Source: a virus (Duplodnaviria; Heunggongvirae; Uroviricota; Caudoviricetes). Taken from it: a stretch of DNA of 5,235 nt. This document shows, in pieces, positions 2,540 through 3,102 of this stretch. Under the pieces are notes generated by a model, which saw only the letters and a list, made by a program, of their open reading frames with translations, did no database searches and had not been told where the DNA came from. Each line of letters starts with the position of its first letter. Position 1 is the first letter of the stretch. A program made the translations under genes and the position numbers. The stretch lies in the IMG/VR virus record IMGVR_UViG_2548876958_000008, one strand, 5' to 3'.

Positions 2540-2805
2540 GCGACCTTATTATTCATGCGCGGTATTGTCGCCGTATTCCTGCATTAACAGAGACCGCAGC
2601 CCGACCGGGAGAATCCTCTGCGCGAGTGTGCGGGGATAATCAAAAACGATACACACCGGGGTTTACCGCGTTAACGGAGCGCGGCGTTGTCCCCTCATGG
2701 TCGCTGGTCCGGTGCGATGGTGGAAGAAGCCGGATGTTTATCACTATTAATTGATAACACAGAAATGGATTCATTGATTTTCAGCACGTTTTTGTATTCG
2801 TATTA

Positions 2806-2846
2806 TTGAACATCTGTTTATTTTACTTTTAACATATTGATAATAA
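2806..2846 (+). promoter_or_regulatory. Candidate sigma70-like promoter in the AT-rich island upstream of the 46-aa peptide ORF
   Basis: AT-rich stretch with -35-like TTGAAC (2806-2811) and extended -10-like TGATAATAA (2838-2846), about 50 nt upstream of ATG 2896. Hexamers are imperfect and AT-rich DNA yields many such matches. Confidence 0.2.
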
Positions 2847-2895
2847 AAAGAGCTGTAAATCTTTAGATGAGTCGATTTTGTCCGGGGAAGTTCAA

Positions 2896-3036
2896 ATGGA
2901 TTTTATGCTGACGGTTTCTGGTGTGGTTATCCTGTCCATTGCTTATACTGCAGATAAATATGGCTGCCATTTGTTATCACGTATTGGCGCTTATTGCTCG
3001 TTGATGCTGATTTTCTCGTCGCTTTTTTTTGAGTAA
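2896..3036 (+). CDS. Small hydrophobic peptide, 46 aa, inside the AT-rich island; not in the ORF track; candidate moron-encoded membrane peptide or toxin-like peptide
   Basis: GGGGAAG ribosome-binding site 5 nt upstream of ATG 2896; it is the first in-frame ATG after an upstream TAA. Translation MDFMLTVSGVVILSIAYTADKYGCHLLSRIGAYCSLMLIFSSLFFE with two hydrophobic stretches. Stop TAA at 3034-3036. Surrounding DNA (about 2740-3075) is markedly more AT-rich than the flanking phage genes. Confidence 0.35.
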   Translation: MDFMLTVSGVVILSIAYTADKYGCHLLSRIGAYCSLMLIFSSLFFE

Positions 3037-3074
3037 GTTATATTAATTATAACAAATAATTTTCTGTGTTTTTT

Positions 3075-3102
3075 CAGGCTATCCCGTCAGACGGGAAGCC
3101 TG
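3075..3102. other. Imperfect 28-bp hairpin-forming palindrome between the convergent peptide ORF and DUF3950 gene
   Basis: caggct (3075-3080) pairs with agcctg (3097-3102) and inner cccg (3083-3086) pairs with cggg (3092-3095), with loop tcaga. A T6 run (3069-3074) precedes rather than follows it on the + strand, so it is not a canonical intrinsic terminator on either strand. Confidence 0.3.

Follow-up and report, generated by a model that had tools for sequence, protein, structure and literature searches.

A translated 46-residue gene in an AT-rich, moron-like island of Escherichia coli lambdoid prophages

The DNA analysed here, referred to as the window, is a 5,235-nucleotide (nt) stretch of the IMG/VR virus record IMGVR_UViG_2548876958_000008 (Caudoviricetes), read as one strand from 5' to 3'. 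It represents the late region of an Escherichia coli lambdoid prophage and is 98.3% identical to prophage Sp6 of strain Sakai over bases 1-5181. The subject of this work is an AT-rich island in the window and the one small gene that it carries, ECs1538 in Sakai, which encodes a product of 46 amino acids (aa). The island and its elements are as follows.

2739-3165, plus strand: AT-rich island, the presumed moron cassette, with one small gene
2778-2806, plus strand: second candidate promoter, TTTTCA-17-TATTAT
2806-2835, plus strand: candidate sigma-70 promoter, with a -35 element TTGAAC/TTGAAT at 2806-2811, an 18-nt spacer and a -10 element TAACAT at 2830-2835, kept in every allele
2816-2850, either strand: invariant 35-nt block, GTTTATTTTACTTTTAACATATTGATAATAAAAAG
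2859 to 2831, minus strand: promoter-like TTTACA/ATTACA-17-TATGTT, overlapping the 35-nt block and conserved in the alleles
2884-2890, plus strand: Shine-Dalgarno (SD)-like GGGGAAG, 5 nt before the ATG
2896-3036, plus strand: 46-aa gene ECs1538 / WP_000347013.1, ATG start, product MDFMLTVSGVVILSIAYTADKYGCHLLSRIGAYCSLMLIFSSLFFE
3023-3030, plus strand: T8 homopolymer at the 3' end of the reading frame, differing in length between copies
3075-3102 and 3138-3170: two stable hairpins, candidate transcript ends, in the spacer before the convergent gene ynfO
3147-3161: weak terminator-like site called by a scanner

A first-pass annotation, made from the letters alone, had described the section from 2740 to 3075 as far more AT-rich than its neighbours. 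This was borne out by a GC content of 31.5%, compared with 51.6% in the rest of the window; the whole island has 36.3% and the element at 2556-2738 has 59%. The open reading frame (ORF) has the position, ATG start and length that had been given for it, the GGGGAAG ribosome-binding site is present as described, and the two hydrophobic stretches noted in the peptide are present, with helices at residues 2-21 and 25-44 in an AlphaFold2 model. The ORF is, however, not unannotated, as had been supposed. It is listed as WP_000347013.1 in RefSeq by the NCBI annotation pipeline PGAP, as ECs_1538/NP_309565.1 in Sakai, and as A0A066T8Z3 in UniRef, where it was seen on at least 1000 contigs. Only certain phage records, LC567835 among them, lack the annotation. 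The SD sequence varies among copies, being GAGGAAG in Sakai, GGGGAAC in the allele labelled L003 and GGGGAGG in that labelled L004, and Hücker et al. scored an SD sequence 4 nt upstream of ECs1538 with a free energy (dG) of -3.6 (PMC5597208). The T run alters only the last one to five residues of the product: T8 copies end in FFE, T9 copies encode a 45-aa product ending in FF, and T7 copies encode a 49-aa product ending in LSKLY.

Expression was assessed from the strand-specific RNA sequencing and ribosome profiling (Ribo-seq) of uninduced Sakai published by Hücker et al. 2017 (S2 Table; PMC5597208). The Sakai island differs from that of the window by a single base, located in the SD sequence. 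In lysogeny broth (LB), ECs1538 reached 57.6 reads per kilobase per million mapped reads (RPKM) for RNA and 26.1 RPKM for footprints, with a ribosomal coverage value (RCV) of 0.46 and a coverage of 0.98 (PMC5597208). The corresponding values were 32.7, 7.3, 0.23 and 0.81 in brain-heart infusion (BHI), and 2.1, 0.6, 0.29 and 0.13 under combined cold and salt stress, where the transcript showed a log fold change of -3.4 at a false discovery rate of 0.047 (PMC5597208). Neighbouring genes in LB gave RNA and footprint values of 8.4/8.4 (holin), 10.1/6.7 (ECs1536) and 3.0/2.1 RPKM (ECs1537), and ynfO gave 45.6/11.1 RPKM in uninduced cells (PMC5597208). For a signal in an intergenic ORF to count as significant, that paper required at least 1 RPKM, a coverage of 50% or more and an RCV of at least 0.25; ECs1538 was one of its 250 short annotated control genes with an RCV of at least 0.25 (PMC5597208). 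The first-pass annotation had named a lack of ribosome occupancy, or a role as the conserved leader of another gene, as outcomes that would speak against a gene here. Footprints were found over 98% of the ORF in LB, and since the next gene, ynfO, is convergent, the ORF does not serve as leader to a gene downstream. RNA rose from 3.0 RPKM over ECs1537 (~2536-2754) to 57.6 RPKM over the ORF, and a lysogen-active promoter inside the island is therefore inferred.

The same annotation had pointed to frameshifts or stops in homologous loci as a further contrary sign. Divergent copies were found to keep the frame. The rare alleles L003 (WP_000523825.1) and L008/L009 encode MGLMLT(I/V)AGVIVLFIACNADKYGYPLLSRIGAYCALILIFSSLFF(E), and their ORF DNA is ~82% identical to that of the window. 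Comparison of the window with L003 and L008 revealed 12 synonymous and 12-13 non-synonymous changes without any insertion or deletion (indel) in 135 nt. The ratio of non-synonymous to synonymous substitution rates (dN/dS) was 0.26-0.28 in the ORF frame, whereas most other frames gave 0.5-2.1 and contained stops, and the synonymous excess had a binomial p of ~0.006-0.008. The substitutions cluster in helix 1; as read from the alignment, L26-F45 carries five synonymous and two conservative changes (S35A and M37I), and the best-kept part of the protein comprises the turn and the second helix, ADKYG..LLSRIGAYC..LIFSSLFF. Identity between these alleles was 82% in the ORF and 85% in ynfO, compared with 62-74% in the non-coding DNA upstream and 60-64% downstream, with indels in the flanks.

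A broader sample was obtained without reference to the ORF by collecting IMG/VR loci through a 24-nt non-coding core of the upstream invariant block. In all 92 usable loci the core was followed by the ORF start, and 88 of these encoded a 45- or 46-residue product. The other four comprised two copies differing only after F44 (T7), one copy without a stop codon and one with an internal frameshift. A search with the central motif added 58 metagenome copies, every one of them open at both ends. Together with the ribosome footprints, these results show a sequence-constrained, translated 46-residue product from a cassette that appears to be self-expressed.

Several observations nevertheless weigh against this interpretation. 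T-rich DNA by itself accounts for both the length and the hydrophobicity of the ORF: when the island was shuffled with its dinucleotide composition kept, 869 of 2000 shuffles (43%) contained an ATG ORF of 46 codons or more, and the grand average of hydropathicity (GRAVY) of the real ORF, 1.11, stands beside 1.45 and 0.99 in the other two plus-strand frames and a shuffle mean of 1.06, a chance-level value explained by the T content of 43%. The selection signal consists of only ~25 substitutions between two allele groups, and the nearer group (L010-L012 and P0024) shows 4-5 non-synonymous changes against one synonymous change (4:1 in L010). The SD sequence has decayed to GGGTTAC in the L008/L009 allele. 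Short annotated Sakai genes average an RCV of 1.55, compared with only 0.46 here, and repeats among Sakai prophages may account for part of the low RPKM of the neighbours, the treatment of multi-mapping reads being unstated (PMC5597208). Finally, the searches described below yielded neither a family match nor a homologue from beyond E. coli prophages that would give a functional lead.

Some of these observations would also fit a situation in which the peptide has no selected function and the island acts as DNA or RNA, either as a promoter/operator transcript modulating the convergent ynfO or as a binding region near cos, with the T-rich ORF being incidentally translated or a very young gene. 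The most conserved piece of the island, the 35-nt block (97-100%), is indeed non-coding, the C-terminus drifts with the length of the T run, the close alleles lack a synonymous excess, the RCV is modest, and the family is restricted to E. coli prophages. However, dN/dS is 0.27 across the deep split, and it is in the invariant turn and second helix that the synonymous changes cluster. Moreover, the ORF is free of indels whereas its flanks contain them, the ATG (or GTG) start and the SD spacing are kept, and an internal frameshift occurs in only one of the 92 copies. We therefore regard the absence of a selected peptide function as unlikely.

To describe the distribution of the island, complete genomes and deposited phages were searched. 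It occurs in 734 of 5426 complete E. coli genomes (13.5%), nearly always as one chromosomal copy of at least 95% identity, and its carriers include O157:H7, O26, O111, O145, O121, O104:H4 and O55:H7 as well as uropathogenic (UPEC) and avian pathogenic (APEC) strains. In tblastn searches, 2 of 50,697 deposited phage records contained it in near-identical form and no plasmid matched. Neither the invariant block nor the conserved peptide core was found in any of 185,579 species-representative genomes. At E <= 1, the peptide had no match in Pfam, PHROGs, NCBIfam or PADLOC. A word-indexed search of 5.8 billion proteins, with the single sequence and with a profile, returned just E. coli copies and fragments, while HMMER against 1.84 billion representatives returned the peptide itself, fragments and three long proteins, whose 4-11 matched stretches led us to discount them as spurious. 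A sequence search of the PDB yielded nothing meaningful for the peptide, and Foldseek against viral models gave only generic hairpins, none at E <= 0.001. Full-text literature searches on WP_000347013 and ECs1538 found no paper, the tag ECs1538 being present in the control set of PMC5597208; the peptide is absent from the novel-gene lists of that Sakai small-gene paper and from the supplements of Fesenko et al. 2024. Because the genome, phage, plasmid and protein searches gave nothing else, the peptide is considered an orphan confined to E. coli prophages.

The signals that might drive and end the transcript were also inspected. Two promoter-like sites are present in the island, as the first-pass annotation had reported, but hexamers of this kind occur there at the chance rate (2 found versus 1.8 expected), and the scanner match for TTGAAY-18-TAACAT was not above chance. 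BPROM returned a linear discriminant function (LDF) score of 8.00 at '248 bp upstream', an ambiguous position; a real start at ~2648 can be dismissed because RNA over 2536-2754 amounted to only 3.0 RPKM. The 35-nt block is 100% identical to L003 and 97% to L008, compared with 62-74% in the adjacent non-coding DNA, and carries overlapping promoter-like -10 elements of both strands. Judging from this conservation, it is probably a promoter or operator core. FindTerm gave no terminator for ECs1538. The section 3030-3175 folds with z-scores of -3.8 on the plus strand and -4.2 on the minus strand, and the hairpins at 3075-3102 and 3138-3170 may end transcripts. Nowhere is the island less conserved than in the spacer between the ORF and ynfO (60-64%), and the L003 version of this spacer has no significant fold.

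The genes and elements on either side of the island, in the order of the window, are listed below.

297-830: signal-arrest-release (SAR)-type lysozyme
1101-1670: P22_AR_N/ORF11CD3 antirepressor-like gene, between the endolysin and spanin genes
1667-1816: 49-aa hydrophobic ORF (PHROG 4906, E 1.5e-30), immediately upstream of Rz and inside the lysis cassette
1824-2291 and 2044-2250: Rz/Rz1 spanin genes
2315-2539: 74-aa ORF
2556-2738: conserved GC-rich non-coding element
3166-3351, minus strand: ynfO/ylcI (DUF3950; Pfam PF13132, E 8.7e-20; NCBIfam YlcI_YnfO_N)
3393-3758: HNH endonuclease gene
between the HNH gene and terS: repeat-rich spacer
4048-4611: terS
from 4608: terL

The island had been placed between the spanin genes and the packaging module. 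That position is correct, but the 74-aa ORF, the minus-strand ynfO and the HNH gene lie in the same interval. The left border of the island is a sharp mosaic boundary at 2738/2739. Homology with the island-less phages L015/L016 stops at 2734-2738, and most of 138 phage records match just the first ~135-140 bases of a 2600-3200 query (window 2600-2740). In PhiR5_1 the GC-rich element directly abuts a lambda-type cos and Nu1, and in L004, which is lambda-type and island-bearing, the island, ynfO and ~170 nt are intercalated before the same cos as in PhiR5_1. The right border is formed by ynfO, which adjoins the island in nearly all copies and also occurs without the 46-aa gene in DLP12 and Qin. 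The block of GC-rich element, island and ynfO is constant across ~90 loci, and its outer flanks are mosaic, with the antirepressor gene, the 49-aa and 74-aa ORFs, and either the HNH gene and an HK97-type terminase or lambda-type Nu1/A. The GC-rich element is not part of the island and is common to many lambdoid and Shiga toxin (Stx) phages that lack it; the 2600-3200 query, which contains part of this element, matches 1572 of the 5426 E. coli genomes at up to 9 places each.

Phage morons were reportedly described by Juhala and colleagues in 2000, and their definition was taken from the review by Cumby, Davidson & Maxwell 2012 (PMC3594210). Like them, the island is extra DNA present at one position in some phages and absent from relatives (L015/L016, PhiR5_1 and the 138 phage records). 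Its base composition deviates from its surroundings (31.5-36.3% versus 51.6% GC). It is also expressed from the repressed prophage (57.6/26.1 RPKM in LB), with the caveat that its neighbours are repeated among Sakai prophages. The first-pass description of a moron island with a gene for a small membrane peptide therefore agrees with the mosaic border at 2734-2738, the foreign composition, and the transcription and ribosome coverage in uninduced Sakai. We propose that the island is a small, compositionally foreign, self-transcribed moron near the right end of a lambdoid prophage, before the HNH-cos-terminase region, and assign this reading, taken together with the membrane role suggested below for its product, a probability of roughly 0.55. 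That ECs1538 is a real, expressed, protein-coding moron gene appears highly probable. Much of this is already known, in that the gene is catalogued, supported by Ribo-seq and found in a textbook moron position; the gene itself is an uncharacterised member of the moron class.

Other genes are found at the corresponding place in related elements. The same Rz-to-cos slot is occupied by bor in lambda. The equivalent slot in K-12 prophages holds borD-ybcV-ybcW in DLP12 and ydfO, gnsB, ynfN and cspI in Qin. The ECs1538 product is unrelated to Bor, a lipoprotein, and to YbcW; the latter, which is encoded in the same slot of DLP12 before ylcI, was considered as a relative and rejected as it gave no alignment. 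In L010-L012, the island is fused directly to the 3' part of terS (window equivalents 3141 to 4347) by a deletion that runs from ynfO through the HNH gene and the cos region into the 5' part of terS and leaves the 46-aa ORF intact. This deletion from ynfO to terS indicates a decaying prophage.

Further observations concern the neighbours themselves. The antirepressor-like gene at 1101-1670 was found in only part of the related prophages, and the 49-aa ORF at 1667-1816 is a later addition to the Sakai annotation, as ECs_5713. The GC-rich element (183 nt) retains 89-96% identity even in copies whose adjoining island shows only 60-80%. It was formerly annotated as ECs1537, and its plus-strand frame matches PHROG 6954, 'Rz-like spanin' (E 2e-13). 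It shows almost no RNA or footprints in Sakai (PMC5597208). A structured RNA was considered for this element and rejected, as neither strand folds significantly (z -0.07 and +1.64). YnfO resembles a ribbon-helix-helix (RHH) DNA-binding protein, a resemblance backed, among the tools used, only by a weak HicB-like match in PHROGs (E 0.056). At the position of ynfO, the current Sakai RefSeq record has a 90-nt plus-strand ECs_1539, whereas PGAP calls the minus-strand gene elsewhere. Motifs of the form (A/C)ATGTTAAC are clustered at 3849-3977, in the gap that follows the HNH gene and precedes terS. They occur as direct and inverted copies, two of which form a perfect inverted pair of 12 nt (3945-3956 and 3966-3977), and are candidate terminase or cos recognition sites of the HK97-type packaging module. 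At the end of the window, the last 54 bases (5182-5235) diverge from the terL of Sp6. This tail (query 5120-5235, best matches 5153-5235) is a multi-copy sequence present at up to 13 places per genome and on plasmids, and the junction was absent from all complete E. coli genomes searched. The terL gene appears to be interrupted, perhaps by an insertion sequence.

As for the product, the AlphaFold2 model is a helical hairpin with a mean predicted local distance difference test (pLDDT) score of 89.7, and PredictProtein assigned the protein to the inner membrane with two transmembrane helices (PMC5597208 S9). On the strength of these predictions, the 46-residue product is probably an inner-membrane hairpin. 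It would insert into the inner membrane with its two helices joined by a turn of three residues, Y22-G23-C24, that has K21 and R29 on either side. According to the positive-inside rule, the basic turn (K21, R29) would be cytoplasmic and the acidic ends (D2, E46) periplasmic. The conserved turn and helix 2 could then serve as the working surface, which, by analogy with other small membrane proteins and with prophage morons such as HK97 gp15, most likely binds a host membrane component or one belonging to an infecting phage; this would confer a conversion phenotype on the lysogen.

The best functional analogy is with HK97 gp15, a moron-encoded, YebO-like small inner-membrane protein that mediates superinfection exclusion (PMC3594210). 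Both are small membrane proteins, predicted as such in the case of ECs1538, from morons of lambdoid prophages. The two have no sequence relationship (no Pfam match at E <= 1), and the ECs1538 family, unlike gp15, which is encoded in the tail operon and related to bacterial YebO proteins, has no relatives. More broadly, no homology to the exclusion proteins HK97 gp15, T4 Imm and P22 SieA was detected in Pfam, PHROGs or PADLOC. ECs1538 is expressed in the lysogen, and an inner-membrane location is predicted for it. The E. coli small inner-membrane regulators AcrZ, MgtS, MgrB and CydX are chromosomal and mostly single-helix proteins. ECs1538 shares with them its size class and, if the analogy holds, the binding of a larger membrane protein, and is not homologous to them. 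We tentatively suggest a lysogen-benefit or exclusion role, with exclusion of incoming phage DNA as the leading single guess, although such a role is itself somewhat less probable than not.

Being a hydrophobic peptide of fewer than 60 residues on a mobile element, the product also resembles the type I toxins Hok, Ldr, Ibs, ShoB, TisB, ZorO and DinQ. It might accordingly be a membrane toxin, either of a type I toxin-antitoxin system with an unrecognised antisense RNA or as a membrane-depolarising abortive-infection effector. Its 46 residues, hydrophobic helices (two predicted; GRAVY 1.11, although this is at chance level for T-rich DNA), prophage site and AT-rich setting fit that class. The minus-strand promoter-like site at 2859 to 2831, conserved in all alleles and overlapping the invariant block, could drive a divergent RNA, an arrangement known from tisB/istR and zorO/orzO, and the minimum free energy (MFE) fold of 2843-2900 pairs the SD sequence. 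However, the peptide matches none of Hok, Ldr, Ibs, ShoB and TisB, nor any Pfam, NCBIfam or PADLOC model, and Rfam gave no match over the whole window on either strand at E <= 1. The Hfq cross-linking (Hfq-CRAC) supplements of Tree et al. 2014 contain no Hfq-bound small RNA (sRNA) at Sakai 1,560,8xx-1,561,2xx. The anti-sRNA genes of that study were also considered for this locus and rejected, since they are sited at the pR' moron upstream of the lysis genes and none is listed here. Instead of a structured leader, the ORF has one that folds no more stably than its shuffles (z +0.39 and -0.18) and that is the least conserved section upstream of it (62-67%), and footprints cover 98% of the ORF in ordinary LB growth. 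Most known type I toxins consist of a single helix with a polar tail, unlike the two-helix hairpin predicted here. As the searches turned up neither a homologue or family nor an antisense RNA, and the leader showed no structure, a type I toxin finds no support here and the balance of the evidence is rather against it. A toxin of either kind, for which the conserved minus-strand site still speaks, is considered unlikely.

The position of the gene raises the question of a role in lysis, in which the product, made from the Q-dependent late transcript, would act as a late accessory and tune the pinholin, SAR endolysin, spanin or lysis timing. The gene shares its strand with the lysis and packaging genes and follows Rz/Rz1 by ~600 nt, another small hydrophobic ORF (1667-1816) lies within that cassette, and the product resembles class II holins and pinholins (S21 type, Phage_holin_2_1) in its two predicted transmembrane helices and its site near lysis genes. 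In contrast to these proteins of ~70 residues, the product has 46 residues, lies outside the cassette and has no match to a holin, antiholin or spanin profile in Pfam or PHROGs. The 74-aa ORF and the GC-rich element separate the gene from the cassette, from which it differs in composition, and a class II holin gene is already present in the cassette, upstream of the endolysin. Furthermore, the product lacks a charged C-terminal tail (it ends ...SSLFFE), its RNA in uninduced cells is ~7-fold above that of the holin (PMC5597208 data), and most phages that share these lysis genes lack the gene. A lysis function thus seems very unlikely.

Beyond the moron interpretation, ECs1538 could be the founder of a new orphan micro-protein family confined to lambdoid prophages, in which the hairpin gives the lysogen a new membrane phenotype. 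We regard this as rather improbable. Such a family would possibly have arisen by de novo birth from T-rich non-coding DNA next to cos, and its phenotype might be, for example, a block of DNA entry by rival Stx or lambdoid phages, or a joint action with the RHH-like YnfO. If so, its presence in 13.5% of complete E. coli genomes, including major lineages of enterohaemorrhagic E. coli (EHEC), would make it relevant to prophage competition in pathogens. The gene offers a clean test case of a taxonomically restricted micro-protein gene in T-rich DNA. If its product excludes phages or alters the envelope, it would bear on the coexistence of lambdoid prophages in EHEC and on the spread of Stx phages.

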